DNA from: a virus
Length of the DNA: 64,000 bases
Virus record (IMG/VR): IMGVR_UViG_3300023084_000003
Direction: 5' to 3' (one strand)
How positions within the stretch are numbered: position 1 is the stretch's first letter; each line of letters begins with the position of its first letter. Both the position numbers and the translations under genes were made by a program. Of the stretch, positions 41,193 through 61,200 are shown piece after piece. Below the pieces are notes generated by a model. The model saw only the letters and a program-made list of their open reading frames with translations, did not search any database and was not told where the DNA came from.

Positions 41193-41193
41193 A

Positions 41194-42237: not shown

Positions 42238-42262
42238 CTTAACTCCATAATATAAAATTCAC

Positions 42263-42601
42263 TTAGTTCCAAGCAGGTTTAAAAGAACTCCTTGTTGCTC
42301 TATTAGTATTTATCTTATCCTGCAAAGTCTTATTCATGATTGCGACATCACCGTCTGTCATGTTAGATTCAATCCATGAAACAACATGAGATTTTTGTAC
42401 TGCAGATAGTGCAATAAAATCTTCAGCCAAAGTGCTTGAAGCTGAAACATGGGTAACACCTTTGTAACTTGCTTCTGTACCGTCATCGTCAACAGCTCTG
42501 CGTTTCCAGTCAATTCTTACAATAGAATCTGAAAGGCTGGAACCATCAGAGCTCGTTTCCTCTTGCGTGGTGAGCTTGAGTATTTCCCAAGAATAGTTCA
42601 T
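42263..42601 (-). CDS. Small virion-associated hypothetical protein (paralog A)
   Basis: Shares L(S)..V....WK(R)...D.DG and F.A...L....V..WI with the next gene. Confidence 0.7.
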   Translation of the reverse strand: MNYSWEILKLTTQEETSSDGSSLSDSIVRIDWKRRAVDDDGTEASYKGVTHVSASSTLAEDFIALSAVQKSHVVSWIESNMTDGDVAIMNKTLQDKINTNRATRSSFKPAWN

Positions 42602-42608
42602 TATTCAC

Positions 42609-43007
42609 CTATTCTGCTGGTGCGTCTGGATCTGCGTCAGATTGCGCTGGTGCTTCTTCTGCTACTACCCAAGGAGGGTTACGATCTTCTTCTAAGCCAG
42701 CGTCAATTTGTTTTTGAATTTGTTCATCAATATGAGCTTTATAAGTTGAGTCTGCATCAATTACTGCATTGATCCAACCTACTACAGTAGCTTCTTCAAG
42801 ATCTTCAAAAGCTACGAAAGAACCAGCAGGCACGTTTTCTGCTGTAAAAGGAGTTGCGCCTGAAAAGGTACCTTCGTTGCCGTCTGCATCCGTTCCTGTG
42901 CGTTTCCAATATGTTTGAACAACAGCGTTGCTTAGAGTAACGCCTTCGCTGTTTACCTGATCTCTAACCTTCAGGTTAGTAACAGTTGTGCTGTATGAGA
43001 AAGCCAT
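42609..43007 (-). CDS. Small virion-associated hypothetical protein (paralog B)
   Basis: Tandem paralog of 42263-42601; behind late promoter 43078. Confidence 0.7.
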   Translation of the reverse strand: MAFSYSTTVTNLKVRDQVNSEGVTLSNAVVQTYWKRTGTDADGNEGTFSGATPFTAENVPAGSFVAFEDLEEATVVGWINAVIDADSTYKAHIDEQIQKQIDAGLEEDRNPPWVVAEEAPAQSDADPDAPAE

Positions 43008-43089: not shown

Positions 43090-43650
43090 TTAACCTCTAT
43101 ACAAATAAAGATCTACGGGAACACATATTCGTAATGACGAATAATACGGGTTAACATGATGATATGTAAAACTTGGAAATATCATAAAATCTCCAGTTTC
43201 TGGTTGGTGGTGATGTCTTTCAAACATAGGATCAAACCACTCATCATATCCTCTATTAGCATTACTTCTTGGATCTGAGAAAACGATATCCCCACCAGAA
43301 CTCCGATCCTCTGCTAATACATAAAAGACTGCCGACAAATGAGCTCCGGAATGATTATGAATTGTCATAGAATAATCTTTGCCGTGGCCGGTTATCCATC
43401 CTTTCATCTCATACTGGCGATAGTCTGTAATCTTTTTACCTATAGTTTTCTTCAAATACTCATCAAACTTTTGATAAACCATCTCTTCAAAGTCAATAAT
43501 AACATCCGAGCCGTCATCCATAATGTTATAGCCGCCAAGATCGCTAGGCGGTGATTGCAAATCATACTCAGTAAGAATATGCTCAGCAAGACCGGGCACA
43601 TTAAACTTACCTTTTGCTACTTGAGTAGGCCATAAGTTTTCAATAATCAT
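43090..43650 (-). CDS. 2OG-Fe(II) oxygenase (TIGR02466-like)
   Basis: HNH...SAVFYV, GGDIVFSDPR, P..G...IFPS..YH.V, R; start moved to MIIENLW directly after upstream TGA. Confidence 0.85.
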   Translation of the reverse strand: MIIENLWPTQVAKGKFNVPGLAEHILTEYDLQSPPSDLGGYNIMDDGSDVIIDFEEMVYQKFDEYLKKTIGKKITDYRQYEMKGWITGHGKDYSMTIHNHSGAHLSAVFYVLAEDRSSGGDIVFSDPRSNANRGYDEWFDPMFERHHHQPETGDFMIFPSFTYHHVNPYYSSLRICVPVDLYLYRG

Positions 43651-43651
43651 A

Positions 43652-44347
43652 TCACACCTGCGCCGGATCGTAGCCACTTTCATGGCCTTCTGTTTTCACA
43701 CCATTATAAGTCATGATTCTTTCCACATCCGGGTGAATTGACAGGTTACAAACTACAGTTACTCTTTCATTACCAAAGTATTGAGTGACATTGTGCCAGA
43801 TATAAGTTGGGACAATAACCATTCTTCGAGCTCTCGTATCCACCTCATAGATCTGAGGATTTCTCATGCCGGGATTTGTATGAAATGACGGATCCCAAAG
43901 TTGTAGTACTCCGCCTTCCTTATCATTATCAACATCATCTAAGTAGAATAAACCATATGCTAATGAACCAGGATGTGTATGCAAAGCAATATAATCGCCT
44001 TCTTTCATGACAGGCATTTGCCCATGTTGGTTTGCTATCATTTCATCGATTTGTTGTTTTGTAAGAGTATTACCTTCATACGATTCAGCGAGCTCAAGAA
44101 AACCTTTTTTAAACTCTTCTCTCACCTTATCTAAGACTGGAAACAGCTTAATGTTTTCTTCTGTAAATAAAGGAAAAGGATCTGAGTTTACATGATATCC
44201 TGGCTCTCCAATGCCGTGCTCATAATGATGAGTCCATGTAGCATGAGCACATATTCTTAGTTCATCCATTTCTTCGTCTGTAAAAGGAAGATTATCTTTA
44301 ATTAAAATGTGAGTTGGATGAATTTTTACAATACTTGGATTATCCAT
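43652..44347 (-). CDS. 2OG-Fe(II) oxygenase (TIGR02466-like)
   Basis: HTH..S...GLFYL, GG.LQLWDP, IVP..IWHNV, RVTVVCN. Confidence 0.8.
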   Translation of the reverse strand: MDNPSIVKIHPTHILIKDNLPFTDEEMDELRICAHATWTHHYEHGIGEPGYHVNSDPFPLFTEENIKLFPVLDKVREEFKKGFLELAESYEGNTLTKQQIDEMIANQHGQMPVMKEGDYIALHTHPGSLAYGLFYLDDVDNDKEGGVLQLWDPSFHTNPGMRNPQIYEVDTRARRMVIVPTYIWHNVTQYFGNERVTVVCNLSIHPDVERIMTYNGVKTEGHESGYDPAQV

Positions 44348-44351
44348 ATTT

Positions 44352-44855
44352 TCACCTTTCCATAATATTAAATTCTATATTTGCCACATCTCTATTTATA
44401 GTCTTTTTTAAGTTTATCACTCTATGCCTAAATTCGTCCGTTTGATTTAAAACCACGATATCATATTTCTTTGGATATATTGTAACACGATTGGGTGAAT
44501 TTTCTCTTTTGATTTCAATCCCGCCACCAGTTGATTCATCCATGTCTGTTAAATACATTAAGAAAGCTATATTAGATCCTTCTATATGATCTGTGTGCCA
44601 TGTATCTGTTTGTTGATCTATACCTCTCCAAGCATCTACATTACCAAAAATAGAATCTTTGTCTTTTAAAATTAAACGATTTATTTTCTTTTGAGTTTTT
44701 CTTAAAAGCCACAAACCTATTGGCCAATAATGAATTGGATATTTCGCTCCATGATTCTTTATCATTGGACATCTATAGAACCACTTTAAATAAGTAAAGA
44801 GTCGTGGATCATTAAAATGATCGTATCCTTCTATTTGTAGCTTTTCATAATTCAT
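44352..44855 (-). CDS. 2OG-Fe(II) oxygenase (HxD...H)
   Basis: WHTD, FLMYL, GGGIEI, FRHRV, R.VANIEF. Confidence 0.8.
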   Translation of the reverse strand: MNYEKLQIEGYDHFNDPRLFTYLKWFYRCPMIKNHGAKYPIHYWPIGLWLLRKTQKKINRLILKDKDSIFGNVDAWRGIDQQTDTWHTDHIEGSNIAFLMYLTDMDESTGGGIEIKRENSPNRVTIYPKKYDIVVLNQTDEFRHRVINLKKTINRDVANIEFNIMER

Positions 44856-45262
44856 TCATCTACAGATTCTAAAATCTCTTCTTTGTAATATTCATATATA
44901 TCCGGCACCATACCAGTCATATCAACTTCACCGATAGCATCAAGAATAGCATCATATGTATAACGATCTTCATCGTATGGAACAAAGTAAGGATCGTGCG
45001 GTAATAGTTCTGAGTCGTTTAATGTATCATAGAAATCTTCTTCAAAATCATCACCAATCCATGTCGCATAACAAATCGCTACTACATAAGATTTAGATGG
45101 GTAGATCCATTCATCTACATATTCTTCGAAGTGGCGAACTGCTTCTGTAATAATATCCTCGCCTTCTACTAAATTAATTTCTACGTCTCTCAGATCATCT
45201 TTATATTCTGCATCTCCGTTGACCATACTGAAATATTGCTGCCTGATTTTCCATTCTTTCAT
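44852..45262 (-). CDS. Hypothetical acidic protein
   Basis: 136 aa, ATGA-coupled within the cluster. Confidence 0.7.
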   Translation of the reverse strand: MKEWKIRQQYFSMVNGDAEYKDDLRDVEINLVEGEDIITEAVRHFEEYVDEWIYPSKSYVVAICYATWIGDDFEEDFYDTLNDSELLPHDPYFVPYDEDRYTYDAILDAIGEVDMTGMVPDIYEYYKEEILESVDE

Positions 45263-46008
45263 TATGCCTCGTATTCCTTTAGTAATTGTGCCTTATCACA
45301 AAAATCTAGATATGCACTGGTGACTTTATAGTGATTATAGAAAAATAACTTCTTAATTCTTTCCCATATGTTTCTTTCTACCATTGGGTAACCAAACGTA
45401 AATACGATTGATTCGTAATGAGTATATTCACGATTCATTTGAATATTCCAAAACTTGGTAAGATCCTCGTCGGTGTATGGTTTATCTCTCCTGTCTGCAA
45501 TAGGAGAGTTAGCGAACGAGAAATCATCGTAAACTATATGTAGGTGTATTGCGTCAGACCACCAAGGTACTGGTTTCTTTGGCCTTTCGACTGTATTTAT
45601 TGCGTTGTCATACCAGTAAATATCACAACCAAGTTTATTCACTTCTTCTATAAATTCTTGCTTCTGCTCTTTTGTATTAAATACGACTCCTATATACCTG
45701 TGTCTGGAATCGTCGTGGCCTTGACAACTTGTGTATGTCAAGTAGCCTTTCTTATGTAACTCAAGTACTGCCCTCTTCACACCGGGCTCTAAATTTTTAT
45801 CGATTATATCTGAGTACTGACTTACAAATGTGCTTACATATTGCCCAAGATGATCTCGGAACATGTAAGTTCTTCCGTTGACGAGATGTAGATTACCTTT
45901 TTCAAACATAGCATAACGATGACCATCTTCTACACTTCGTAAATGAGGATCGTCTTTTCTGCTATATTCTTGTTGATACTGTACTCTATACTCGTACTGC
46001 GTCTTCAT
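45262..46008 (-). CDS. Hypothetical protein with T-x-x-S-C-x-G-H motif
   Basis: IDKNLEPGV...L...GYLTYTSCQGH, reminiscent of the Tyw3 TxSSCSGR motif. Confidence 0.6.
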   Translation of the reverse strand: MKTQYEYRVQYQQEYSRKDDPHLRSVEDGHRYAMFEKGNLHLVNGRTYMFRDHLGQYVSTFVSQYSDIIDKNLEPGVKRAVLELHKKGYLTYTSCQGHDDSRHRYIGVVFNTKEQKQEFIEEVNKLGCDIYWYDNAINTVERPKKPVPWWSDAIHLHIVYDDFSFANSPIADRRDKPYTDEDLTKFWNIQMNREYTHYESIVFTFGYPMVERNIWERIKKLFFYNHYKVTSAYLDFCDKAQLLKEYEA

Positions 46009-46909
46009 TATACCATTCTAGTAGGTTGAAATAACCGTTGCAACCGTTTTGTTTTGGTGGGAATGCTACAAATTTGTAGTGCTCGGTTAAACACTTTCCA
46101 AAATATTTGCATTGCCTACATATATCTGATACACCACTGTTCTTTTCTTTTACGGTCCATTGTTCATATTCTAGAAAGGATTCCAGTTCCGTAAAGCTTT
46201 CGTTACCAAGTAAGTCGAAATCCAATACACCAAACTTGCCGTTAGGAGTAATATACACATGATCATCGCTAAAGGCGTTATAATTGCCATCTAAACATTC
46301 CTCTATCTTATCTTGATTTATGAATTGAAAGTTCTTCTCAATAGGACTATCAATCCATTTCATAATAAACTCTTCGTATTCAAGATCAGTAACATACTGC
46401 TTACGATGAGTTGTAGAGCTGAATGGTTTAATCTCTACAGCAATCAGATTGCCTAGAGTGTTAAACATATTAATCATATAGTCTACATCTTCATTTATAA
46501 CATATTCTGATGCTAATGTCAATACCGAAAATGGTCTATTTAACTTAAGCATATTACCGAACACGATCATCTCTTTCTCGCGAGCACCAAAATCATATGA
46601 TACAGATAGATCAATATCTTCTCTAAGAAATGATTTACGTATTGCAGAAAGATTGGTAATAATCGAGATCGTACATTCGTATTTATCTTTGATTCTATCG
46701 ATCAAATCATCTAAATATGTATCAGGTAGAATACCAATCTCACCACCATAAAGATCGATGTGTGTCACAGTAGGCTTAATCTCACTTAATCGTGCCATAA
46801 TTGTGTCAATAGATGTAGTTGTTCTGTCACGTAGTTGTTCTTTACTTAGATAGCAGAAATCACAATTAAAGTTACAAAAATAGGTAGGGTTAATCGATAC
46901 TGAGAACAT
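45986..46909 (-). CDS. Radical SAM / SPASM-type protein
   Basis: CNFNCDFC (CxxxCxxC), YGGE, C-terminal CRQC..FGKC...C; start moved to ATG 46909 behind GAGG. Confidence 0.92.
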   Translation of the reverse strand: MFSVSINPTYFCNFNCDFCYLSKEQLRDRTTTSIDTIMARLSEIKPTVTHIDLYGGEIGILPDTYLDDLIDRIKDKYECTISIITNLSAIRKSFLREDIDLSVSYDFGAREKEMIVFGNMLKLNRPFSVLTLASEYVINEDVDYMINMFNTLGNLIAVEIKPFSSTTHRKQYVTDLEYEEFIMKWIDSPIEKNFQFINQDKIEECLDGNYNAFSDDHVYITPNGKFGVLDFDLLGNESFTELESFLEYEQWTVKEKNSGVSDICRQCKYFGKCLTEHYKFVAFPPKQNGCNGYFNLLEWYNEDAVRV

Positions 46910-47942
46910 CAATTTCCTCATTCACATATGGGGTTACACTGTTTGGATCTAATCCGTTAATTTCTAAAATACGAGGGGCAAGAGATTTCATGTGTTTGCA
47001 ATGAGATTCTGCTTGCCCTTCTCGCTTCATATCACGCACTGTTTTTTTACAGCCATTACATATTTCAAACATAGGACAACTATAACAGGCTTGCTTTAAT
47101 GTTTGAATATTAAAGTCATCTTGTAGTGGAGTGGAAAATCCTCCGTTTAACTCATGTTCAAAGGAGATAGGATAATCCCTATCATCACCAAAGGAACCAC
47201 AAGAATAGTAATCGCCTCCAGGATTGAAGGCCCGTATGTGTTCGTCGCATCGACGATTTTGTGGACAACTTGTTGCATTACCTTTTAACCTCCGCATCAT
47301 TTGCTTGGTATTATATTCCCACTTCCACAGACCTCGATCGTAAATTTCGACGTAAGTCTCATAAATCTTACTTAGTCTGTAAGTGGACCCTTGTATACCA
47401 GAGGCCATAGCATAATTGAGTTTGCATTCGACATCCATTTCCTTAGCAAGCTCAACATTACGAATAGCATCTGGTGCATCTTCATCAGTCATAACTGCAA
47501 TAAAATCTGGACGATATCCAACAAGATCTAGCATCTTATTCGATGCCAACCAGAAATCTTTCTCTGTGAAGATTGTGTAATCGCCTTTTAAACGACCTTT
47601 ACCATATTGGAAACTGGTACATATTCCTAGACGTGGGTGGCGAAACAAATCTATCCACTTCTCTGGCTTTACAACAAAAGGCCATAAATTGGTTGTGAAA
47701 CTAATATTCGCAGGATAGTCATGCTCATCTAAATGATCTATAATCTTCCAATAATAACTAGGTTCCACCATCAAAGGGTCGCCACCATTTACGATAATGG
47801 TGCGAGTGTGAGGATACCTCTTTAAAAATTTGAAAATATAATCATGATCCAAAAGCTTTGCTTTATTCGGATCAATATCTGTAGACGAACAGAAAGTACA
47901 CTTAAAGTTGCAAGCTTCTGTCGGCTTTATTATTAGTTCCAT
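46890..47942 (-). CDS. Radical SAM / SPASM-type protein
   Basis: CNFKCTFC, GGDPL, CPQNRRC...SCG...CYSCPMFEICNGC...C. Confidence 0.93.
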   Translation of the reverse strand: MELIIKPTEACNFKCTFCSSTDIDPNKAKLLDHDYIFKFLKRYPHTRTIIVNGGDPLMVEPSYYWKIIDHLDEHDYPANISFTTNLWPFVVKPEKWIDLFRHPRLGICTSFQYGKGRLKGDYTIFTEKDFWLASNKMLDLVGYRPDFIAVMTDEDAPDAIRNVELAKEMDVECKLNYAMASGIQGSTYRLSKIYETYVEIYDRGLWKWEYNTKQMMRRLKGNATSCPQNRRCDEHIRAFNPGGDYYSCGSFGDDRDYPISFEHELNGGFSTPLQDDFNIQTLKQACYSCPMFEICNGCKKTVRDMKREGQAESHCKHMKSLAPRILEINGLDPNSVTPYVNEEIDVLSID

Positions 47943-48963
47943 TCAATAATTCCATCATCAAAGTTTTAGGTGCAGGACAAACGTCACCTTGCCATTCAAG
48001 TTGGTGGCAGTCGGAGTGGCAATAGGCAAATACCGGACACGAATAGCAACGTGGATCTCTTATGACTTGTTCGTCGATAATTACCTTTTGCCGCCCCTTG
48101 CTATTTATAACGTCTTCTACTGATTGTTTAATATTGCCATAATGATCGGTAGGAGCAGCGTTAGGGCAGCCAGCAATAGTACCATCCGCATTAATCGTAA
48201 ATAATTTTTGTTCACAATCTCTGCAAAACGTTCCTTGGTGTAAGAGTCCTTTTTCAAATTTGTTATAGACCGTTTCCATGAAGACATCTTCAAACTCCTC
48301 TCTTATATCATAACATTCCTCATATGCTCTCATAAAGAAATCTTGAAGTGCTGCATTCGTAGGATAAAGCTTTTCGCCATATAACAAAGCATTACCATTA
48401 CCGGTAATACGTTCCCAAGATATTTCCGTGATGCCAAGACCTCTCAAATAATCAATCATTTCTCGAGGAGACCTATTGACAACGTCCTTAGATAATGATA
48501 CAAATGCTTTAAGAATGAATCCTTGATCTACTAAGAATCTTACGTTGTCTTCCCAAAGCTTTTCTTGCTTTTCATTTGCAAAGCGTATTGTTGGATCCCA
48601 TGATGTTCCAATACGTTTACCTGTCATTACACGAGAAAAGAAATCTAATCTATCATCTGTTAACTTATATGTAAGATTAGTTGTAATACCGAATGAACCT
48701 CTTACGCCCCATACGCTTTGTACTCTATTATAGAATTCAAATAGATCTTCGGTTTTAGCAAGCATAGGCTCGCCACCGTGATATTCAAAGTGGCATATTT
48801 TTGTGCCATCATATAACTGATTAACCCAGTTAGCGGTAGCCACTGGGTCAAAGTATATTTTAGCTCCGTTGATTCCGCTTGTAAAGCAGTGGAAGCAATT
48901 TAAGTTACACGTCTCCGTGGTCTTGACGTATACACTCAGATTGCTCTGTATCGGACAAACCAT
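47902..48963 (-). CDS. Radical SAM / SPASM-type protein
   Basis: CNLNCFHC, HGGEP, CRDC...GCPN...CYSCPVFAYCHSDC...C. Confidence 0.93.
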   Translation of the reverse strand: MVCPIQSNLSVYVKTTETCNLNCFHCFTSGINGAKIYFDPVATANWVNQLYDGTKICHFEYHGGEPMLAKTEDLFEFYNRVQSVWGVRGSFGITTNLTYKLTDDRLDFFSRVMTGKRIGTSWDPTIRFANEKQEKLWEDNVRFLVDQGFILKAFVSLSKDVVNRSPREMIDYLRGLGITEISWERITGNGNALLYGEKLYPTNAALQDFFMRAYEECYDIREEFEDVFMETVYNKFEKGLLHQGTFCRDCEQKLFTINADGTIAGCPNAAPTDHYGNIKQSVEDVINSKGRQKVIIDEQVIRDPRCYSCPVFAYCHSDCHQLEWQGDVCPAPKTLMMELLNGTNNKADRSLQL

Positions 48964-49402
48964 AACTAAACATTAATCCTTCTCGTACATTCAATGCTCT
49001 GTGAGGAGTATCTGCGGGTATTTGCCAAAAGTCTCCCTCCTCAAGATTATGAATAACGTCGTTCACTTCAATTGTTTTATGACCAGCACTTACATGTAAT
49101 AATACATCAACTGGGTCGGTATGTACACCAAAACTTGGCGATTCTTTCCAGTATCTAAAAGCATGAATGGTGCCTTCTTTAAAGCCACAAACGTGTTCGA
49201 TACCTTCAACCTTTATTGTATCATTAGATTCTGCAAGCTTTACTTGTACCTTTGCTAAGTACTCATTGTAGTCATCTGATACTATTTTAACATCTTTTCC
49301 ACGATTGTCAATATATAATGTGCGATCATACATATAAGCTTCATGGCTTAGTACGTATTCTTCAAAGTCTTCGTAGGACCATTTTAAATTAGGCAGTTGC
49401 AT
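48905..49402 (-). CDS. JmjC/cupin-like oxygenase
   Basis: SFGVHTDPVDV (HxD), G.K.IEV, GDFWQIP..TPH.A. Confidence 0.8.
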   Translation of the reverse strand: MQLPNLKWSYEDFEEYVLSHEAYMYDRTLYIDNRGKDVKIVSDDYNEYLAKVQVKLAESNDTIKVEGIEHVCGFKEGTIHAFRYWKESPSFGVHTDPVDVLLHVSAGHKTIEVNDVIHNLEEGDFWQIPADTPHRALNVREGLMFSYGLSDTEQSECIRQDHGDV

Positions 49403-51305
49403 ACTCTAGTTCCTTTGTTTGAGTAGGCTGAGAAAATGCCCTTACAAAGAGTTCGTTAAGAAGAATGATTTCATTATCGTCTTGTGTGAGTTCCATGATG
49501 CATTCTAATCTAGATTTGTTGCCAATAATTCTTTTCAATCCACGAGGTGGAGTGTCTGGATTCAAAATGTCTACAATATTTTCGTGCACCTCGTCAAAAC
49601 CAGGAATACAATCACGAATTACAGCGTAACACATTCTGCAAAACTCTGCTGGAGTAAGAACATCTTTAAATGTGTCATAATGCTTTTGCAAAAGAATATT
49701 ACCACAAACATTCATAAACCACATCTCATGAAATTCTTCGCGAGTAAATGAATAGCAAGATGCAATTGTTTTAAAGTAAGACTTTAGGCCACGATATAGA
49801 CCATATCTATTATCAGCCCCGCCTTCTTCAATAACATCGGTATAGCATTCCACAACTTCAATATCATACTTTTTTATATATTCAGGATCTGTAAGTTCAG
49901 AATCTGGTAGGAACATATAGTCATGTCTCCATGAACCGTATGATTTAAAGTTATAGTAAATCTCATACTCATTATAGAAGTCATCTATAGTAGATCCAGG
50001 CATTCCTAGAATTAATTCTACGGGTGGCTTTGGATAACCTTCAACGTTGCAACGCTGATTAATATGGCGCGCGAGTGCTAACTTATCTTCTAAATTTAGA
50101 TCAACTCTATTTACTACATCCATAGCTTCTTTACTAATACTTTGGATACTTACTGTTGGAACTACTGAGATATAAAGAGCTTCGCCTTCTGCTGCTTGCT
50201 TTCTTCTAATATCATCTTCCCAGTCTTCTCCATCTTGCTCACCAAAATTATCAACCATTCCACGGCTCGTATTCTGTTCATTGAATACGTGAATTGTGGT
50301 ACCCATAGCCTGATTTTCTGCCGAGCCCATAAAGAACAATGCATGAGAACCTTGCTCAGGTACAAACACTTCTGAGTGCTTCTCTTCGCCTGTTCCTAAC
50401 GTGTCAAACCATGCATCAACAAGTTTCTTTCTTCTTGCAAGGTCTCTTGATTTAAAAGTTGAGATGTCGGTAAGATTAAATCCATTCTTAAAGGTCCAAT
50501 CAAAGATCTCGATGTCTCTTTCTAAGAATGCGCCGAAGTTTGCATCGGTAAGATAAGCATCTCGGAAGCCTGCGTCTTTCAAAGCCTCAACATCTCGCTT
50601 ATAAATGTCTAGATCTTTCTTATAGATCTTAGTACCAATACCTCCGCCCCATTCACAGAATGCACACTTAAATGGACAGCCACGAGTAGATTCTAATGCC
50701 ATGAATGGCTCAAGTACCTGAGTACGAGCCCACTCGCGCATTTCTTTAAGATAATCCATATGTTCTTCATAAACAGAATAATCTTGGTCTGCGATATTTA
50801 GAACACCTTTTTTATTTGAGCGCCATTCCCAAGTTACATCTTCATGTTTTGGCCATTGATTTAAATTATTAAAATATCCATCAAGCAGAGAGTTCATGAA
50901 TATTTCGCCGGGCTTGGTTACCTGACAAATATAATCATATAGTTCATATCTTAGATTCATTAGTTTTGGCTCGTTACGACCAATATGAGGTCCGCCGATT
51001 ACTGTAATAGCTTCTGGGTTTTGCTCTCTTACGAGCTTAGCAACCTCATCGCACATCTGATAGTTCCAAATATATGAACTAAAGCAGTATACGTCAAGAG
51101 GTTCTCCCTGCTCCATATCTTCTTTAATTTCTTGGAAAGATCGATACACGTCAAATTTGTATGTTGCAGGAACAAACTCTACTTTATCGGGATACATTCC
51201 CTCATGTTTATAATGACTTTCTAACATCATCCACGTCAAATTAGACGGCGTTTGCCAATCTGCATGAGGTGGTGACATGTAACCTAAACGTAATTTTTTA
51301 CTCAT
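49389..51305 (-). CDS. Cobalamin-binding radical SAM enzyme (class B methyltransferase-like)
   Basis: N-terminal B12-binding-type domain (FSSYIWN, VIGGPH), STRGCPFKCAFC, DANFG, ELILGMPGST. Confidence 0.9.
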   Translation of the reverse strand: MSKKLRLGYMSPPHADWQTPSNLTWMMLESHYKHEGMYPDKVEFVPATYKFDVYRSFQEIKEDMEQGEPLDVYCFSSYIWNYQMCDEVAKLVREQNPEAITVIGGPHIGRNEPKLMNLRYELYDYICQVTKPGEIFMNSLLDGYFNNLNQWPKHEDVTWEWRSNKKGVLNIADQDYSVYEEHMDYLKEMREWARTQVLEPFMALESTRGCPFKCAFCEWGGGIGTKIYKKDLDIYKRDVEALKDAGFRDAYLTDANFGAFLERDIEIFDWTFKNGFNLTDISTFKSRDLARRKKLVDAWFDTLGTGEEKHSEVFVPEQGSHALFFMGSAENQAMGTTIHVFNEQNTSRGMVDNFGEQDGEDWEDDIRRKQAAEGEALYISVVPTVSIQSISKEAMDVVNRVDLNLEDKLALARHINQRCNVEGYPKPPVELILGMPGSTIDDFYNEYEIYYNFKSYGSWRHDYMFLPDSELTDPEYIKKYDIEVVECYTDVIEEGGADNRYGLYRGLKSYFKTIASCYSFTREEFHEMWFMNVCGNILLQKHYDTFKDVLTPAEFCRMCYAVIRDCIPGFDEVHENIVDILNPDTPPRGLKRIIGNKSRLECIMELTQDDNEIILLNELFVRAFSQPTQTKELEYATA

Positions 51306-52411
51306 TTATCTCTCTTCGAATCCACATATCTAAATAGTTCTTTGTTTATACACTCGTCCATGTCCTGCTTCATGTTTCCAGCTTTAATTCCTGAGAAACA
51401 CATCATAGGACATCTTTGATAAAATTCGCATGCATGACAATTATATTTATCAAGGAAACTCGTTAAAGTATTATCAAGAAAATTATCTGGTCCGTTATGT
51501 TGGCGATAAGAAGGCGAGTTAAACTTCTTCAAATAATGAGAGCCAACACATCCTTCTGGAATAATCTTATTGTCCCAATCAATAGCAGCACCATTACCAC
51601 GAGAACATATCGTATGCATCTGATGGTCTTTTGGCTGCATAAAAGGTATAATATATTCTACTTTTGGGTATTTGTCAACCAATAATTTATAAAAAGCTAA
51701 AACTTCTGATTCTAAAGGTATCTCAACGTCGTTATGTTCTGTTCCTTTAATGTATTGATCCCAAGAATAATCAAATCTGCTATATAAGTAATCATAATAT
51801 TCGTCACCTGCTAGTAAAGCTTGAATATTTTGTTTTGTAATCACTGAGTTAATATTACGAATATAAGGTGCAAAGATCTCAATATTCTCTTTAAATATCT
51901 GTAAGTTCTTTTGATTAAATCTACCTTTTAAATCAAACGATACAACGAATGTCGTATCCTCACCCTGCTCATCCATGAACCGTTTAATTTCATCTCTGGT
52001 CTCAACCATACTAAAATTAGAGATCCAAATGAATTCTAGTACTTGATCTGTGAGATTTGTTTTTTCTCTCACTCCATTTGCAAGATCTCTATAGGCTTCT
52101 AGGAGATTAGAATCTTTTAGGATAGCGTCATTAAATGGTTCACCACCAATCATTCGAACAACAAATTCTGTAGCAAAACTATTTTGATTAATATATTCAG
52201 CAATAATATCTGCTTTAGATACTATAGACTCATAGTTCATACCTTTTTTACTATTATGATCTTGTGGGCAAAATGAACACGCAAAGTTGCAGTACTCAAA
52301 GAGTATTACAACAATCTCGCACGACTTATTTCTTTTTTCGAAAATTAGATTTGCAGCGGTGTCAGAGCCCCACTTATCACCAGTCTCGGTGACATCAATC
52401 ATATTAATCAT
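51302..52411 (-). CDS. Radical SAM / SPASM-type protein
   Basis: CNFACSFC, GGEPF, C...C...CHACEFYQRCPMMC...C. Confidence 0.9.
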   Translation of the reverse strand: MINMIDVTETGDKWGSDTAANLIFEKRNKSCEIVVILFEYCNFACSFCPQDHNSKKGMNYESIVSKADIIAEYINQNSFATEFVVRMIGGEPFNDAILKDSNLLEAYRDLANGVREKTNLTDQVLEFIWISNFSMVETRDEIKRFMDEQGEDTTFVVSFDLKGRFNQKNLQIFKENIEIFAPYIRNINSVITKQNIQALLAGDEYYDYLYSRFDYSWDQYIKGTEHNDVEIPLESEVLAFYKLLVDKYPKVEYIIPFMQPKDHQMHTICSRGNGAAIDWDNKIIPEGCVGSHYLKKFNSPSYRQHNGPDNFLDNTLTSFLDKYNCHACEFYQRCPMMCFSGIKAGNMKQDMDECINKELFRYVDSKRDK

Positions 52412-52423
52412 TACAAACCTTTA

Positions 52424-53596
52424 TTACGTATGGCTGAATTTATTTAACTGAGTTGTATTTTCTGCAATTTTTAATTGATAAAGATACTCAATCCAAAATG
52501 TATTTATTTTTTCCTGCATATATTCATAGTGCCAAACTTTAGTAGTTCCCTGATAAGTAATATCATCTGCAATAATATCTTCCCAAGCTGTATCTCTTAT
52601 TTCTGTGTTAGATAAGTTTGTTCCATCTATTCTATTAAGCATTCCTTCAGCACCTTTAATAACATCCTGAAGCTCGACGTCGTTAGCATCGTCTGCGTTT
52701 GTATTATCTACAACCCATTGAAGCCATCCCAAGCCTACATCCCAATGCGCAACACGGTATTCCCAGTTTTCTACAAGGGCGTCGTAGGATCTGTCAAAAA
52801 GAAAATCCATATCAGAATTCGCAGCTCTAAGTGAAGTCATCCAGTTTGGATCGGTCCAGTTCAATGTTACGCCAGTCATAGAGCGAACTTTTTCTGTCAT
52901 AATATTATCTCTAATATATTCTCTTAGATCACTAACAATTCCAAAGCCAATTTTTGAATGTATTCTTTGACCTTTTATTGCAATGGGAGTTATTGTAATG
53001 TCACCACACAAATATGCTGCGAGCTGAATCTCAATACACAAACTGTCTCTTAAAGCGTCTCGAACAGACGTATAATAAGAAGCCTCAACAGTATCTGCCG
53101 TATTAAATGCATTATATGCGGTTGCGAATTCTGATTGAGTATACACTGCTTCTGCCATTGCGTCAGCAACTCTAATAGCAGAAAAAGATCTGCTTGACAT
53201 ATTATCAACTTCTACAAGTTTTTCTCTTTGTCTTGTTATATTATAGAGTATAAAAGCAGCGTCAACATCTATATTTGGCATTGCTACTTTAAGCCAAGCA
53301 AAGAACAATTTATGATATGATTCAGCGTCTGCATATATTCTTCCAGACCAATCATTATCATATAAAGATTTAATAAAGTGAGCATATGATTCGTGCTGGC
53401 CCTCATCGCTTCCAATAATATCATCTATTGAAGCTGTCCAATGAAGTATTTCAGTTCCATAGCCAGGACTTGCAAGAGTACTCATATTAGTATATTGATG
53501 CTGATTTCTTTCAACAGAAAATACAGCTCTATCCTGAGAGTTATCATAAGCCCAGTCTGGAGAAACATATACTTTATCAAATAGGTTAAACGACAT
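52424..53596 (-). CDS. Hypothetical protein
   Basis: 390 aa, no recognisable motif, inside the radical SAM operon. Confidence 0.75.
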   Translation of the reverse strand: MSFNLFDKVYVSPDWAYDNSQDRAVFSVERNQHQYTNMSTLASPGYGTEILHWTASIDDIIGSDEGQHESYAHFIKSLYDNDWSGRIYADAESYHKLFFAWLKVAMPNIDVDAAFILYNITRQREKLVEVDNMSSRSFSAIRVADAMAEAVYTQSEFATAYNAFNTADTVEASYYTSVRDALRDSLCIEIQLAAYLCGDITITPIAIKGQRIHSKIGFGIVSDLREYIRDNIMTEKVRSMTGVTLNWTDPNWMTSLRAANSDMDFLFDRSYDALVENWEYRVAHWDVGLGWLQWVVDNTNADDANDVELQDVIKGAEGMLNRIDGTNLSNTEIRDTAWEDIIADDITYQGTTKVWHYEYMQEKINTFWIEYLYQLKIAENTTQLNKFSHT

Positions 53597-54683
53597 TCTT
53601 TTTTAATTCCTCTGGTATACATTCGTCCCATTTGCCAGCCGCAATTACTTTTGTTTGTACACAAAGAGTGTTTGCTTCTGTATCAAAGTACGAAAACATG
53701 TTTCTTCCTTTAAATCTATATTCATTAAATTGATTCGTGAAAATCTTTCCTTTTCTATCTCCAATAGATCCTATATAATATCCAATCCAAGGCAGAGCAT
53801 ACGTATTAACAAAGTTAATTCCTACATAGTCTGGATCATCTACCTCTTCAAATGTTTTTTCAACAAAATCGTTAAACTCAGGAATATTTAAACATTGAAA
53901 ATTAAAGATTGGAGATGAGTCTAACATCTCACACCATCTTTTTACAATATCTAAATTCTCTTCAATAAAATCTTCTGCATTATTTAGTCTTTCAAAGTAC
54001 ATGTAAGGTGCTAGTGGATCATCACAAAATTCATCAATTTCTTCTTGATCAACAGTAGGAATATTAGTTCCAAACTCATACATTGGTTTCAGCACTTTCA
54101 TATATTGACAACAAACCGCCAATGCTTCTCTTGCTAACTGCTCAATATCAACCAAAGCTGTTGTTGTGCTCATGTAAGCAGCAACTAATTCTTTTAAAGC
54201 ATCTCTATCATTATAAGTTTCTTCATCAAAATCTGCATCTAGATTCAAGTTACTTAGATAGATCATCAAAGCATTTGCGTCTAGTTTACCAGCTCTATAG
54301 TTAATCTTAAAAGCAGTATTCTCTTTATCCTGAAAGTACTCTTTTAAAACCTCCATAGGTAAAGGACAGCTTGTTTCAATAATCTTTTTTGGTTTTAAAG
54401 CCTGTTTTTTCTTAAGATCTTCTACACTTTCTTGTACATCGTCATTATAAGAGTTGTCTCGGATAACCGCTTGAATCTCTTTACTTACTTGCTCTTTAGA
54501 AGATTTTTTAGGTTTAATATCATCAGCGTTTTCTTCTACGAATTTAAGCACTTCTTCCTTTGTAATGCCTACATTTTTTAAAGCATTCCAAGAAGTAATA
54601 GAAAGATCTTGGTTTCTTTCCCATTCAGATTTTAGAGTTTCAAGTTTTAATCCGGCTTTTTCAATTTTTTCTACAAGATTCAT
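53586..54683 (-). CDS. Hypothetical protein
   Basis: 365 aa, acidic helical, inside the radical SAM operon. Confidence 0.75.
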   Translation of the reverse strand: MNLVEKIEKAGLKLETLKSEWERNQDLSITSWNALKNVGITKEEVLKFVEENADDIKPKKSSKEQVSKEIQAVIRDNSYNDDVQESVEDLKKKQALKPKKIIETSCPLPMEVLKEYFQDKENTAFKINYRAGKLDANALMIYLSNLNLDADFDEETYNDRDALKELVAAYMSTTTALVDIEQLAREALAVCCQYMKVLKPMYEFGTNIPTVDQEEIDEFCDDPLAPYMYFERLNNAEDFIEENLDIVKRWCEMLDSSPIFNFQCLNIPEFNDFVEKTFEEVDDPDYVGINFVNTYALPWIGYYIGSIGDRKGKIFTNQFNEYRFKGRNMFSYFDTEANTLCVQTKVIAAGKWDECIPEELKKNVV

Positions 54684-54695
54684 TATATAAATTCC

Positions 54696-55271
54696 TTATC
54701 TTCTTCCTCTAGAACTGTGACAACTTGTATGACAGCTATTGTGACAATACGTAATATCAAAGTCTGCTCTATTATCTTTTAATGTATCCCATGCATTAAA
54801 TAAATTAGTGCAAAGGTTATTAAAATCAGCAGCGTGCGCAACTTCATCTTCTGTAACACCACCACTGTTAACTAATGTCATAGTTTGTCTTTGCCCAGTA
54901 TCACGGACAGTAATACCGTCAGCAGATCCTCTCTCTGTCACTGTGCCACCATCATTCTGGCGAAGCCATCTCACCTTACACTGGCGTATGTTAGTGAGGT
55001 TTCCAGTTGCCGCAGTAAGATGTAAATAAACCTTCACCGCTTCAATAGTCGTACCATCATCACCAATTCCAGTGACTGTTACATCAGAGCTTGGATTATC
55101 TGCAGCATAATTAGCGTCTGGAGCTACCTGCCCATCATCTACGCCTGTAGTCGGTGTGTGTTTTGCTGTAGAATGATACACGATTGTATTGTGGGCTGGA
55201 GTTTCCACCGCATCAATAAATGCCTGTCTCGCTGCTGAATTTTCTATTAAATCGCCTGCTGTTACCGCCAT
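54696..55271 (-). CDS. Protein ending in (CHxS)3-RGRR; candidate substrate of the radical SAM cluster
   Basis: C-terminus CHNSCHTSCHSSRGRR checked in DNA at 54696-54746; first gene of the cluster. Confidence 0.8.
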   Translation of the reverse strand: MAVTAGDLIENSAARQAFIDAVETPAHNTIVYHSTAKHTPTTGVDDGQVAPDANYAADNPSSDVTVTGIGDDGTTIEAVKVYLHLTAATGNLTNIRQCKVRWLRQNDGGTVTERGSADGITVRDTGQRQTMTLVNSGGVTEDEVAHAADFNNLCTNLFNAWDTLKDNRADFDITYCHNSCHTSCHSSRGRR

Positions 55272-58200
55272 TAGACTTTCACCTCCACTATTCCATTTTC
55301 ACTATTGCTCAATGCGATACCAATGATTTCATGACTATTTATACCGGGCGTGCCGTATGGAACTCCCTTACACTTACCAACAGCTTCTGGATCTGGAATC
55401 AACCACATACCTTTTTTAACATCACCAGATACGAATGCTGGAATACGACCTTTTAGAGCAATAAATGGATTCATTTTAGCTTTTTTAGATTTGTCATTTT
55501 CAATGCCCATATCGTTCATTCTAACGCCAGGTTCTGTAGATATAACACCAACCATTGGTAAACCTTCGCGCCATACTGTAATTTCAGCATCACCATCTAG
55601 ATCAATACCCATTAGAGTGCCTGGCTCATAGATATCATCTGCAGAATATCTTTCCGCAAGGTCAGCCCAGCGAGCGCTTGTTGCAGTACCATTATAAACA
55701 CCATCATTATCAACGTGAGCTTTATCACTTCCATCTCTACGGAACTGACAAATACGGTTTGAGTTACCACCGCCAACAATATAGAAACGATCTGAGTGAT
55801 ATTCAATCTTACCTCTATCGTTACCTGGATCTCCTGTCCATTGAACGTCAGGTTCGTTGAAACGCATGCCTGGAGAATATCCATCTCTGTGAGTCATGCG
55901 GAACATCCATTCTCCGCCTGAGTTTAAGAAACCTTGCCACAACGAATCACTAGAACTATCACCTTCACCATGAATCCAGAAACGACTTCTACCGTCAAAT
56001 GTAGCCAAACCACGAAGGTTCATTGCGCTGTCATTATTGTTACCAGTCATTCTCCATTCTTGGGAATTCGTAGCATAGAAGTCTGTACCATTAGCGTCAT
56101 TGCGCAAGCCGCGGCCGTCACTATCGTTCCGATACCAACCGTCGTTATCAATATTACCTCTAATATCAAGGCTGTTCATGCGTGATGTGCCGGCTGGGTT
56201 CGTATAATAGAAAGTGTTGTTTCTATCATAGAAAATCGGTGCACGCATCGAAGTGTAGGATTGGCTGTTCCCGCTGTTATCTACATAGAAACGTGTAGAT
56301 TGGGCGTCTTCGTCCCAAACCACAAACACGTTTTCATCTGCAGCACCACCAACCATAACGCCGTCATCGGTAATTTTAATAAAACCAACATCAGAACTAT
56401 ATCCAGTTTGAAGAATAAGACCATATCCATCTAGGCCGTAGTTGTAAACTGTTGAGTTTGTGTTTGGAGTTCCTCGTGTAGTTCTGTCACCGTAGAAAAT
56501 ATAACCTTCGTAAGTGTAACTCCCGCCAGTATCAACAAACGATATTTTTCCATTTAATGATAATTCATTTAGCTTTGTAGTACTTGCTGGATCTGCATAG
56601 TAGCCTGAATCATTTCTATCATAGTAAATGTCGCCGTAGACAGAGCCACGAAGATATGAAGTACCATTGATATCGAGAGTATAAGCAGGACCAGATGTCG
56701 TAGATCCACCAAAGCCAGAGCTTATTCTTCTTGCTACTGTAAGATCACCGTTTGTTGTAAGTGACATAGCACCTTGAGCTGTAGTATGACCCGTGTCACC
56801 CCACCAGAAACCACGATCATCCTCATCATTGAACTGGAATGTCATAGCCCAGTCATTCAGAGCACCAAACGTAACATCTGATTGCATACCAATGGCATAA
56901 GATGAGCTACTATAAACACGAATTTTATCACGAGTAGAGTTTGCAGGACCAACAAGCCTGTCGAAATCCATTGTGGAAATATTTGAATTTCCGTTCGGAT
57001 TTATATAGTAATTAGTGTCGTTACTATCATAGAAGATAGGTGCACGGTAGTCACTAGAAGCTTGTCCAGTACCTCTAATATAAGAACCGATTTGTTCCCA
57101 ACCATTAACAGAACCAGCTTCACAAGTACGCATCCATGCTGAGCCAACTGATCCCGTGTAGTTAGATCTTGGATATGCTACTTCTAACCAGTAATCAGAG
57201 CTACCATAGTTCAATCCGTATTCTTGTCCAAGAGATGTTCTTACACGATACCACTGACTTGAACCTGTGTTAGGCGCGTTTGTATTACCTTGTACATAAC
57301 TCCAACCCCAGTGATTAACTGCAGCATTAAAGTCAGTATATGTGTTGTGATTGTACCATTGACCAAACTGACCAACTGCAGAAACACCTTGTGTAGCAGA
57401 TCCTCCAGACCCAGTAACACTATTAAAGCGAAGAACATTTAATCTTGTAGTACCAGCAAAGTCGCCGTAATAGTTCGTATCATTTTTATCATAGTAGATA
57501 GGAATATATGCAGCCCCTGTTGCATAAACTCTACCATTAGAACCATCTAGACCAACTCTTGCATCACCATCTGCTGCAACGTATAGACCCCATCCACCAA
57601 GAACACTATTGATACCATCGTAATTGGCATTCGGGTGTGAATAACCAATACCGTACATATTTTCCAAGTTACCATCGGTTGGGTTGTAGTTCGAACCGAT
57701 TGTGTAAATTGGGTTTGTTTTGGTTGAGTTGGCGCCGATATTATTATATGAACCAACTAGGTGGCCTCGAGAGTGGCCTGGTCTATAGCGATAATCAACG
57801 TTAGTACCGTTCATTCTAGACGTAGAGTTACCATCAAAGAAGTAACTGGTATTACTCTGATCGTAGAATACAGTACCTCGTACATCGCCTTGAGCAGTAA
57901 TATTACCGAAGTAAGATCTCATGTTGTATGGACTACCGCCAGCAACTGAACCTAGCGTTCCACGGAAACCTTGACCTGAAAGAATTGTATTTGTAGAATC
58001 TGCTGGACTACCTGGCTCAACTTTTGTGCTGCCGTCATTAGTAGTAATACCATCCTGGCGAATCCATCTCCACCATAACTGCGAATCCCAAGTACAGCCA
58101 TTCATTCTCAACCATAGATATCTATTGTTGTCAATTCTAACTTCTGGAGTAATACTATCGTTTGGATAATTTGTCTGATGGCCGACTGACATTGTCGAGT

Positions 58201-61200
58201 TGTTCCAAGAAGAAACAACCACAGTACCTTTTACAAAGCCTGAATAGTTTACATCATCCTTTGCGTAATATTCAAGAATACCTTTCGCCCCGCCGGTGTT
58301 TGTACGGCCAACGCGGATCCAATAATAACGAGTTCCATTGGTTGAGTCATAAACATATGTACTTGTGTTATACCACCTACCGGTCCAAGGTTGGTTTTGC
58401 GAATAACCACCAACTGTTAAACCGTTAAGGTTAGATGTGCCTGCCGGATCAACATAATATGAGGTATTATCATTATCATACATGCTGTCAGCAAACAAGA
58501 TGTTCTCAACGCGTACGTTATCGTCGCCTTTACCTACTGAGAAGATCTCAGATCCACCGCCGGCGTCTCTTCTTGAGTCATTGTAGAATCGTGTACCACC
58601 GTATGATTTGTTAGCTCCGATTTGAATACCAGTATGCCAGTTCAAGCGAAGCTTAGAGTAATCACCACCGTAATTCTCCTTATCAACATAGATCATGTAG
58701 TAAGGTTGGCTATCGGATCTCTGACCCCATGAAATGCCTGTTACACCCCCGTCAGCTTGAGACGGATCTGATGTAGAATCCCAAAGATTGAGGTGACGAC
58801 CTGGACCAGTAGAGCTACCGTCTCTAAGTAGGAACCCACCGCCGAGCTCTTCGTATCTGTCAGAACGGAAAGCATCTGCCGCCTGGACTGTGTTTAGATT
58901 AGATGTACTTGCCGGATCAAGATAGTAATTTGTATCATTTGTGTCGTAGAATATTGGAGCTCTAACAGATGCGTTATGATAGAACTGAGCAGAATCCATC
59001 TCGCCCATAAGAGTTCTACCATAGTGCATAAATCTTAGTTTACCGCCACTTGCTCCTGATGTAGTTTTATTACCAGAAATACCGGCGTATTCACGGTATG
59101 TGCCACCATTATCTTTTAATCTAAAGTAAAAACCTGCACCAACAGAAGAACTACTATTATCATGGTTTGCACGAGCCAAACGAAGAACGCCATAATCTAC
59201 TGAGTTGCTATTTGTTCCAGTATCTTGAATCATATCAAATGTTACCGGCCCTCCAGTAGTTTGAGAGCGGAAATTGGCCGTACTGGTGCCGGTATTGAAA
59301 TACAAGGAGTTGCTGCTGTACAACCTAATGTTAGACATTCTCGATTCGCTAGCAAAGTTGCCATAATATGAAGTATTATTTGAATCGTAATAGATCGGAG
59401 ATCTCATATTGGATGATGCATAAGCCTCACCGCCAACATGGAAAGTATATGAGGGGCTTGTGGCATTAATACCAACTCTACCATTGTACATCCATGTCAT
59501 AAGCTCGGTGCCGCTAGAAGTAAAGTCAGCACCAAACAAACTGCCACTATTAAATCTCAGGAACATGTTACCAGTAAATTTGTCATCCATACCAAACATG
59601 AATGATGAGTCGCCAGTACTGCTTCCTCCAGTTAGATCGCTGAATTCAATGCCAACGTCACCGTTGTAATTCATAAATCTCATGCGGCCTTCGTTGTTGG
59701 CATCACCCAACATATCCATCCAAACTTCTGTGCCGTTGTTATCAAGCCTAACTCTACCAGCAAGGCGCATTGCCTCACCGGTGCTGTTTGGATTTATATA
59801 ATAAGATGTGTTATTAATATCATAGAAGATAGGAGCGCGCATATCGCCTCTGGCTTGCAGAGAACCACCATTTGTTGCTCTAAATTGATACTGCTGAGCT
59901 CCACCAGTAGTTGCAGTAAACTGTAGATTACCGCCTGAGTTTGTAGTTAGATCATCTGGCGATTCATAAATTCTCCAGTCAGTACCACCTTTCCAACGAA
60001 TACCTTCGTTAGGACCCGGATCATTAAACGCTATATCGTTCAGGTTATCAATGGTACCATTATTCCAGTTCCATGAACCTTCAACACTACCGCCAGTAGC
60101 TGGGTTCATGTATCTTGCAGTATTATCACGATCACGGAAGTTGCTTGCATCAACAGTATTCATCTTAGATGTTGAAGCAGGATTTACATAAAAGTTATTG
60201 TCATTGCTGTCATAGAAGATAGGCGCATAAAGGTTACCTGAGAATCTTGCTTCTTGGGCATCGATGTTTGAAAGATAGTTTGTACGTCTTACAATCGGAG
60301 GACCAAATTCGCGAACAGCACCAGAACCTGCATAGTTCATCAATACGATAACACGAATATATTTACATCCACCGCCGTCAGAACCGTTAAATGGTGAATG
60401 CGACGTTGGAATTGTATGATGGGCTTTATATGTAGTCCAACCCGTGCTTGTTACATTTGCAGCAGAAGCTACAAAATATGTGATACCATCGTTACCTGCA
60501 ATAGGGTTCTTATCTTTATCGTATCTACGTACACCCATATAAAGATAACGAGTACCACCAGAGTCAGAACCACTTACAAGTCTAGCCGAGATCTCACCGT
60601 AGATCTCCATGCCAGGCTCAACTGCGATATAGTCAGAGTCGAATGTTCTGTAACCACTTGTTCTTAGAGCATATGAAGCCTCAAAAGGACCGTCATTATT
60701 TTTGACGAAATCAGCAGTTGAAGTTGTAGCAGAGTCTTCTGCTCCTTGCATAACCTGAATAACACGTTTTTCCCAATATTCAGTACCGTCGAATATAACA
60801 GTATCGGCTTTACCGGAACCATATGCTTTAATAAGGCTAAGATCTTCATTACCGCCGTTAAGAGCAATGTTAGCAAAACGGCCAGTACCGTATGCTTGGA
60901 AATCACCATTTTCTTCAAACCAGAATCTATCACCGATAGAATTAAAGTGAACAATAAAGTTCGAACGATTGTTTCTGTCGTCATGGACCAACCAAGGATA
61001 GTTAGCATCAGCTGCACTATTTTTAAACGCAGCCAAATAACGGTTAGCGTGATGGATCTTAAATGGATACGTGCTGTCAGTAGAAATTCTAGCTTGGTCA
61101 CCAACCGAGATAGACTTCATTCTAGAGTCTGATGCAAAGTCTCCCCAGTATGCAGTGTCTGCGCTATCATAGTAGATAGGAGCACGCATTTGGTTATTAG

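Follow-up and report, generated by a model that had tools for sequence, protein, structure and literature searches.

The stretch of DNA analyzed here, called the window throughout, comprises 64,000 nucleotides of the IMG/VR virus record IMGVR_UViG_3300023084_000003, and our subject is a cluster of 14 coupled minus-strand genes (43090-55271) behind a giant tail-fiber gene. We refer to this cluster and its relatives as "the kit." Family scans identify the window as the virion region of a T4-like myophage, with major head, terminase, sheath, and neck genes; genomes near-identical to it are about 220 kb in size. In the cluster the scans find four radical S-adenosylmethionine (SAM) enzymes of SPASM type, one cobalamin (B12) radical SAM enzyme, one cupin, three 2-oxoglutarate (2OG) oxygenases, four proteins without known function, and a 191-amino-acid (aa) protein with a Cys-His tail, hereafter the tagged protein, without which the genes number 13. 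This is the gene set that a first-pass annotation had proposed, and all of its members are open reading frames (ORFs) at the coordinates below. Genes overlap at 10 of the 13 junctions in the cluster and are spaced by 4-12 nt at the remaining ones, and the fiber stop and the start of the tagged gene overlap by 1 nt. The fiber ORF is incomplete in the window; its full length, in a near-identical ~220-kb genome, is 3368 aa. In the list, counts out of 20 refer to the full-flank loci described further on.

55271..63994, minus: giant tail-fiber gene, Peptidase_G2-like C-terminal domain (PF11962, weak, E=0.04); runs off the window
54696..55271, minus: tagged protein, 191 aa, presumed substrate; folded body (residues 1-175) plus (C-H-x-S)3-R-G-R-R tail (AF2, PHROG 35144, invariant tail, Foldseek)
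54696..54746, minus: tail coding region of the tagged gene; three Cys-His-x-Ser units, RGRR, stop
53586..54683, minus: core protein without known function, 365 aa, family core ~240 aa (PHROG 20767, pLDDT 89)
52424..53596, minus: 390-aa protein without known function, divergent family, often part of the kit (at least 10/20 full loci)
51302..52411, minus: core radical SAM/SPASM-type enzyme, 369 aa (20/20)
49389..51305, minus: accessory cobalamin-dependent radical SAM enzyme, probable C-methyltransferase, 638 aa (9/20)
48905..49402, minus: core JmjC/cupin oxygenase, HxD...H (20/20)
47902..48963, minus: core radical SAM/SPASM enzyme, 353 aa (TIGR04085 above cut-off)
46890..47942, minus: core radical SAM/SPASM enzyme, 350 aa, best-conserved gene of the kit
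45986..46921, minus: core radical SAM enzyme, 311 aa, distal auxiliary Cys set only (19/20)
45262..46008, minus: accessory protein without known function, 248 aa
44852..45262, minus: core small protein without known function, 136 aa, WIYPxKS motif (PHROG 20737; 20/20)
44352..44855, minus: accessory 2OG-Fe(II) oxygenase (PF13640)
43652..44347, minus: accessory 2OG-Fe(II) oxygenase (PF13759)
43090..43683, minus: 2OG-Fe(II) oxygenase, near-core in phages (PF13759; 19/20)

The tagged protein ends in CHNSCHTSCHSSRGRR. A CHxxCHxxCH pattern is expected by chance only ~1e-4 times per window, and synonymous codon changes in five other phages point to conservation at the protein level, so the (CHxS)3RGRR ending that had first drawn attention is real. 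Tail Cys, His, and Arg stay invariant among homologs while identity in the body drops to ~20%. To describe the repeat we used 96 homologs (301 units) that were found independently, the motif not serving as a search filter. Position 2 is His in 290 units, Tyr in 9, and Asn in 2; position 3 is Gly 56 times; position 4 admits Ser, Asn, Asp, and Ala, with no Gly in any unit. What is invariant in the repeat as originally written is therefore its Cys and its His (or Tyr), and its Ser is one of four residues that may occupy that place. Two homologs carry longer CxxxC tails with His-to-Tyr and Ser-to-Asn/Asp replacements (L290:7559-8230 and L292:5041-5655), followed by homologs of the 365-aa and 350-aa genes, and they form a bridge to CXXX-repeat systems.

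The body of this protein is predicted to be folded, which we take as established at the level of prediction: the AlphaFold2 (AF2) model has a mean predicted local distance difference test score (pLDDT) of 87.6 and a predicted template modeling score (pTM) of 0.82, with the tail at pLDDT 46-56. Foldseek matches it to predicted phage proteins including gp170 of phage Atu_ph07. Among solved structures there is no clear match (best Z 3.5), which does not by itself prove a new fold, and the ESM Atlas gave no usable match. The predicted fold also occurs inside 500-660-aa phage proteins of Myoviridae ctijX18 (BFVD A0A8S5USJ7, A0A8S5USJ8, A0A8S5USV2). None of 63 phage copies has a hydrophobic N-terminus.

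The enzymes look intact because their Fe-S cysteines are near-invariant: across 49-70 homologs the CxxxCxxC motif and C-terminal Cys sets of the four radical SAM enzymes are at least 88% conserved, mostly without exception. The first-pass description of all four as SPASM-like needs one amendment, since the 311-aa enzyme has the distal Cys set alone (C268, C271, C277, H281, C294) and is therefore not a full SPASM protein. The B12 enzyme, the cupin, and the 2OG oxygenases were correctly named. The 638-aa protein, whose B12-binding domain precedes its radical SAM domain, matches KedN5 (E=1.7e-29) and TokK (E=1.9e-20), so that, from its class B cobalamin-dependent layout, it is a probable C-methyltransferase; the cupin and the three oxygenases score at Pfam cut-offs. 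For the other radical SAM enzymes the best, though weak, family matches are the peptide maturases DarE, DynA, PapB, GrrM, and AmcB, at about one-tenth of the family cut-offs, and one enzyme matches the viperin model best (core only, at 41 bits where the cut-off is 180).

None of these enzymes has room for an N-terminal RiPP recognition element (RRE; RiPP, ribosomally synthesized, post-translationally modified peptide): the Fe-S motif begins at residue 11-41, with a median of 10-26 residues before CxxxCxxC. The core proteins without known function are therefore candidates for substrate delivery, and the 365-aa protein in particular may be a substrate-binding or assembly partner. Its gene is the usual next gene after the tag (86/173 tags), and the 353-aa radical SAM gene directly precedes the tag gene in 79/173 cases. 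Searches with the 365-, 390-, and 136-aa families returned nothing from Pfam, NCBIfam, or PDB sequences; an origin as degenerate radical SAM domains, which we considered and dropped, is not detectable. The core of the 365-aa family has no clear PDB fold match (best Z 4.5), which again does not prove a new fold.

How consistently do tag and enzymes travel together? A search with the 350-aa enzyme retrieved 15 phage records, namely the RSL2/RSF1/FLC/S13 group, Atu_ph07, Phosso, and DT01. The identity of this enzyme is 51-60% in cultured jumbo phages and 52-56% in five Bdellovibrionota genomes. Each of the four phages inspected (RSL2, Atu_ph07, DT01, Phosso) shares the core genes and encodes a protein that ends in the same tail, its body being 178-306 aa long; the B12 enzyme was not seen in their clusters. 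Searches of IMG/VR yielded 138 stretches for the enzyme and, for the back-translated tail, at least 119. Starting from the tag, core genes were present at 112/116 viral loci, the other four contigs ending <500 bp after the tag, and at 44/44 loci with wide flanks. Starting from the enzyme, 20 loci had full flanks: three radical SAM enzymes, the cupin, and the 365-aa and 136-aa proteins occurred in all 20, the fourth radical SAM enzyme and one 2OG oxygenase in 19 each, and the B12 enzyme in 9. The tag was present in 16 of the 20, and three more contigs have tags just beyond the fetched flank.

Gene content and tag-enzyme linkage are thereby established. Clusters without a tagged gene had been named beforehand as the observation that would count against the idea; instead tag and enzymes co-occur both ways. 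The kit is a fixed core with a variable accessory set, and the window carries a single-tag, B12-containing subtype. What had been called a complete multi-step modification line thus survives as a conserved modification line with the tagged protein as its likely substrate, and the B12 enzyme and most oxygenases are accessory to it.

Several variants deserve mention. A marine subtype (L012, L014, L027, L055, L064, and others) has two tagged paralogs of ~125-135 aa directly behind the fiber, and additional enzymes in two convergent blocks. RSL2 has a dihydrofolate reductase gene and a 203-aa neighbor inserted mid-kit (L001:10822-11971), whereas DT01 and Bdellovibrionota kits contain additional radical SAM genes of another lineage (L004:14203-16234, L213, L222, L285). 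Two kits lie on contigs assigned to Bacillota (L240, L247; a Dysosmobacter segnis isolate and a Bacilli MAG, i.e., metagenome-assembled genome). In the window, the region downstream of the kit (39202-43007, minus strand) holds two DUF7936 genes, two proteins of 347 and 413 aa without known function, and a cytidylyltransferase/mannose-6-phosphate-isomerase-like gene, a block that accompanies the kit in one marine subgroup only.

The tagged protein has a homolog in the virions of one phage. This Atu_ph07 homolog, gp170, is present in purified virions (8 peptides, 35% coverage; PMC6102473 Table S5), and this presence we regard as established. None of the kit enzymes is listed in that virion proteome (PMC6102473). 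The 32-kDa gp170 peaks in the top gel band 1 (PMC6102473); among ~30 other proteins of its size with at least two peptides, compared by eye in the same data, only gp321 does so.

Gene order suggests the fiber tip as the place of the tagged protein. At 50/66 viral loci the end of a gene with the same fiber C-terminal domain lies <3 kb upstream of the tag, and at 17 of them it abuts the tag. The window offers an internal parallel: at 34422-35429 (minus strand) lies a gp38-type adhesin gene (PF05268 above cut-off), coupled to a 1098-aa fiber (35429-38725) by the same 1-nt overlap as that of the tagged gene. T2/S16-type gp38 genes are likewise coupled directly behind a chaperone-terminated fiber. 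On fold, the comparison of the tagged protein with gp38 yielded no listed PDB match.

The system is not confined to phages: the kit is also found in Bdellovibrionota chromosomes and, distantly, in Pseudomonas megaplasmids. In GTDB the true tail-bearing genes are mostly Bdellovibrionota, at about 27 loci; most other pattern matches were set aside as chance frames in GC-rich genomes or, by gene content and tree position, as phage contigs in MAGs. The enzyme occurs in 10 of 301 sampled Bdellovibrionota genomes, 8 of which have the exact tail pattern, and homology of the substrate bodies to those of phages holds when the tail is disregarded as well. These kits sit amid housekeeping genes on contigs as long as 2.8 Mb, and in the tree their enzymes are separated from the viral ones with 98% support in the Shimodaira-Hasegawa-like approximate likelihood ratio test (SH-aLRT) and one exception; on these three grounds we reject mis-binned phage as their source. 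Two kits have degenerate tails (L299:8562-9170, and L302 near 15300-15600), one of which mixes CHSN with SHSN units and is intermediate towards HxsA-type repeats.

The Bdellovibrionota kits adjoin fiber genes with a pilin motif and a Peptidase_S74 domain, together with a conserved ~200-aa gene (L279:15160-15762, L286:7164-7775, and relatives). The latter occurs in 9/10 kit-positive genomes and 14/301 overall, and adjoins a radical SAM cluster in every genome inspected. We examined its product as a homolog of the phage fiber C-terminal domain: the motifs are in register, the match is not significant (hhalign probability 15% and 0.5%), and we make no such claim. In four kit-less genomes (G275, G246, G101, G064; L297:1-10522, L298, L300, L301) the same gene heads a different cluster of seven radical SAM genes, which suggests interchangeable cassettes. 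In the three such clusters examined there is a 170-190-aa protein, Cys/His-rich at both ends (12 Cys) and not detectably homologous to the tagged family. These S74 fibers recall the Bdellovibrio MAT fibers; signal peptides are described for the MATs (PMC10769870), whereas the S74 neighbors of the predator kits start with a pilin motif.

The same enzyme query retrieves Pseudomonas megaplasmids, whose related enzymes have ~25% identity. At least six radical SAM genes lie there behind a type IV pilus operon, around a 124-aa signal-peptide protein that ends in four CHxA units and RGWR. This protein is encoded in 129 Pseudomonas megaplasmids, clinical ones included (e.g., pQBR103 PQBR_RS00205, L293:15676-16050; also L295:14001-14375). 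Related enzymes thus again surround a protein with a Cys-His tail, but its body is unrelated to that of the phages; the tail thus behaves like a tag that can pass from one protein to another. The two core proteins without known function were not found in the megaplasmid stretch examined. [quoted passage not shown]

The nearest characterized system is HXS, whose working the kit resembles without being a member of it. In HXS, radical SAM enzymes mature a folded protein on basic His-x-Ser repeats and need a small partner (PMC13128918), much as is proposed for the kit. HXS (HxsA/B/C/D; TIGR03976-03979), by contrast, is a bacterial anti-phage defense with two enzymes, in which HxsA bears a signal peptide as well as a peptidoglycan-binding domain; in the kit an invariant Cys opens each repeat, 4-9 enzymes plus oxygenases are present, and a substrate homolog is a virion protein. 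Scores against the HXS radical SAM pair reach 30.7 bits for HxsB (cut-off 370) and 24.8 for HxsC (cut-off 267.9), the 191-aa protein has no NCBIfam or relevant Pfam match and no signal peptide, and the 365-aa family gave no match to HxsD, a comparison in which the scans of the 136-aa protein covered just Pfam and PHROG.

Two groups of peptide systems resemble the repeat itself. In triceptides (HaaB, YhhB, HtkB, GrrM/OscB, AmcB), SPASM-type enzymes act on aromatic-X-X motifs that begin with His or Tyr and end in a residue with a C-beta, and join the aromatic ring to the C-beta two residues on (PMC11499958). The tail units follow this motif, with His or Tyr in 299/301 and a third residue that is never Gly, yet triceptides are short leader-core peptides usually served by one maturase, whereas the triplets of the kit's substrate take turns with Cys and sit on a folded protein; scores against the cyclophane-synthase families are 33.5 for GrrM/OscB (cut-off 310) and 29.4 for AmcB (cut-off 425). 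Ranthipeptide and CXXX-repeat systems (PapA/PapB, SCIFF, TIGR04115, TIGR04117) also place a Cys at every fourth residue among small residues, and a longer-tailed homolog of our substrate matches TIGR04117 weakly (E=0.004). The kit differs from them in its lack of an N-terminal RRE, the His after each Cys, the folded 175-residue body, and several paralogous enzymes, and scores 40.2 bits for PapB (cut-off 340) and 23.8 for TIGR04115 (cut-off 350). A cross-linked protein that is retained has a precedent in QhpD/QhpC, whose SPASM enzyme introduces Cys cross-links into a protein subunit; that subunit belongs to a bacterial enzyme, has one maturase, and lacks a His repeat.

We consider it probable that the kit is a dedicated maturation set that covalently matures the tail of one retained structural protein, probably at the fiber tip. 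Late in infection, the 191-aa protein would be made together with the fiber (the genes are coupled within a virion operon), and the four core radical SAM/SPASM enzymes and two conserved proteins without known function would covalently modify its (Cys-His-x-Ser)3 tail. That the tail is modified in some way seems to us very probable. The likeliest chemistry would be one His-to-C-beta cross-link per His-x-Ser/Asn triplet, triceptide-like and costing 2 Da each (-2 Da), plus Cys thioethers; such cross-links are suggested because position 2 is aromatic and position 4 always has a C-beta, and we rate this specific chemistry a shade below evenly balanced. The cupin and 2OG enzymes might add hydroxyls and, in the window's subtype, the B12 enzyme a methyl. 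The protein would retain its folded body and enter the virion, most likely at the fiber tip, where a rigid, possibly metal-binding tail would serve host contact; this location and adhesion role we regard as evenly poised.

Several observations weigh against this reading. The maturase matches are so far under the family cut-offs that the chemistry cannot be read from them. The virion evidence comes from one phage and one distant homolog, and the top-of-gel position of gp170 may reflect disulfides or an oligomer resistant to sodium dodecyl sulfate (SDS), since the loading buffer as described contained no reductant. Members of the phiKZ-like group have a different virion protein upstream of the tag. 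The 191-aa protein has no sequence similarity to gp38 and no PF05268 match. Lastly, the Bdellovibrionota homologs would need export and yet have no signal peptide.

The same evidence can be arranged in other ways. The first-pass annotation had in mind a RiPP-like maturation operon. In a classical RiPP system the folded body would play the part of an outsized leader or carrier, from which the modified tail of 16 residues would be released as a small peptide (a toxin, an anti-defense, or a competition factor). The tail is terminal and low-confidence in the model, it has been transplanted onto an unrelated exported body in megaplasmids, and HxsA is also processed (PMC13128918). A folded protein with a homolog in virions is, however, not a short leader-core precursor; the body fold is conserved and common to phages and predators, the 35% coverage of gp170 comes from virions, and family scans recognized no protease, exporter, or RRE among the 14 genes, four of whose products are without known function. 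We therefore find release quite unlikely. A reading with the same chemistry and another purpose makes the mature basic tail a DNA binder instead of an adhesin, whether for ejection, piloting, or superinfection exclusion. For HxsA, which two radical SAM enzymes mature, DNA binding via its basic HxS repeats is described (PMC13128918), the RGRR at the tail end is invariant, and the plasmid version carries a signal peptide; the phage copies, on the other hand, lack both signal peptide and peptidoglycan-binding domain, lie in a late structural operon, and, like their counterparts in the two other unrelated element types, are tightly linked to fiber, pilin-S74, or pilus genes, which leaves such a role unlikely.

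It is also conceivable that the tail is a metal or Fe-S site without cross-links, on which the enzymes load a small cofactor or metallophore that they build, for example as a lure that carries iron and attracts the uptake receptors of the host. With their four-residue spacing, the three Cys and three His are good ligands, oxygenases are many and vary in number, and HxH iron sites exist in the fiber tips of T4. The swaps of His to Tyr and Ser to Asn/Asp and the exclusion of Gly from position 4 fit radical cross-linking better than ligation, and the core has none of the enzymes that build small molecules (ligases, nonribosomal peptide synthetases, pyridoxal phosphate enzymes), so we judge this quite improbable. 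Finally, the enzymes might act on DNA, nucleotides, or virion glycans with the tagged gene as a bystander. The viperin match and the sugar-nucleotide gene downstream in the window could be read that way, but the near-perfect two-way co-occurrence with the tag in phages and bacteria, the absence of DNA-metabolism genes from the kit, and the confinement of the sugar genes to one marine subgroup make it highly improbable.

We found no published description of the kit, most subscription papers being outside the reach of the search, nor did we find radical-SAM cross-linking reported for any virion protein, or radical SAM maturation for gp38 adhesins or MATs. Phage papers only list the kit genes, and in the jumbo-phage survey PMC7824862 the word "radical" is absent. 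The class of chemistry is known; the substrate, the host elements, and the apparent purpose are new.

As a wider and more tentative possibility, phages, predatory bacteria, and conjugative megaplasmids may share interchangeable radical-SAM cassettes that tailor the tip proteins of contact appendages (tail fibers, pilin-S74 fibers, and type IV pili) and so create a polycyclic recognition element of Cys and His that may be loaded with metal. Direct tests are possible, as Atu_ph07, RSL2, S13, and pQBR103 are in culture. If maturation of a retained tip protein is true, it would suggest a function for the long-noted, unexplained radical SAM clusters of cultured jumbo phages and Pseudomonas megaplasmid backbones, and add four new maturase families that act on a folded protein. 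It would also mean that RiPP chemistry serves as a structural adhesin on a virion, a chemical layer of host recognition that escapes both standard proteomics and the prediction of hosts from genomes.

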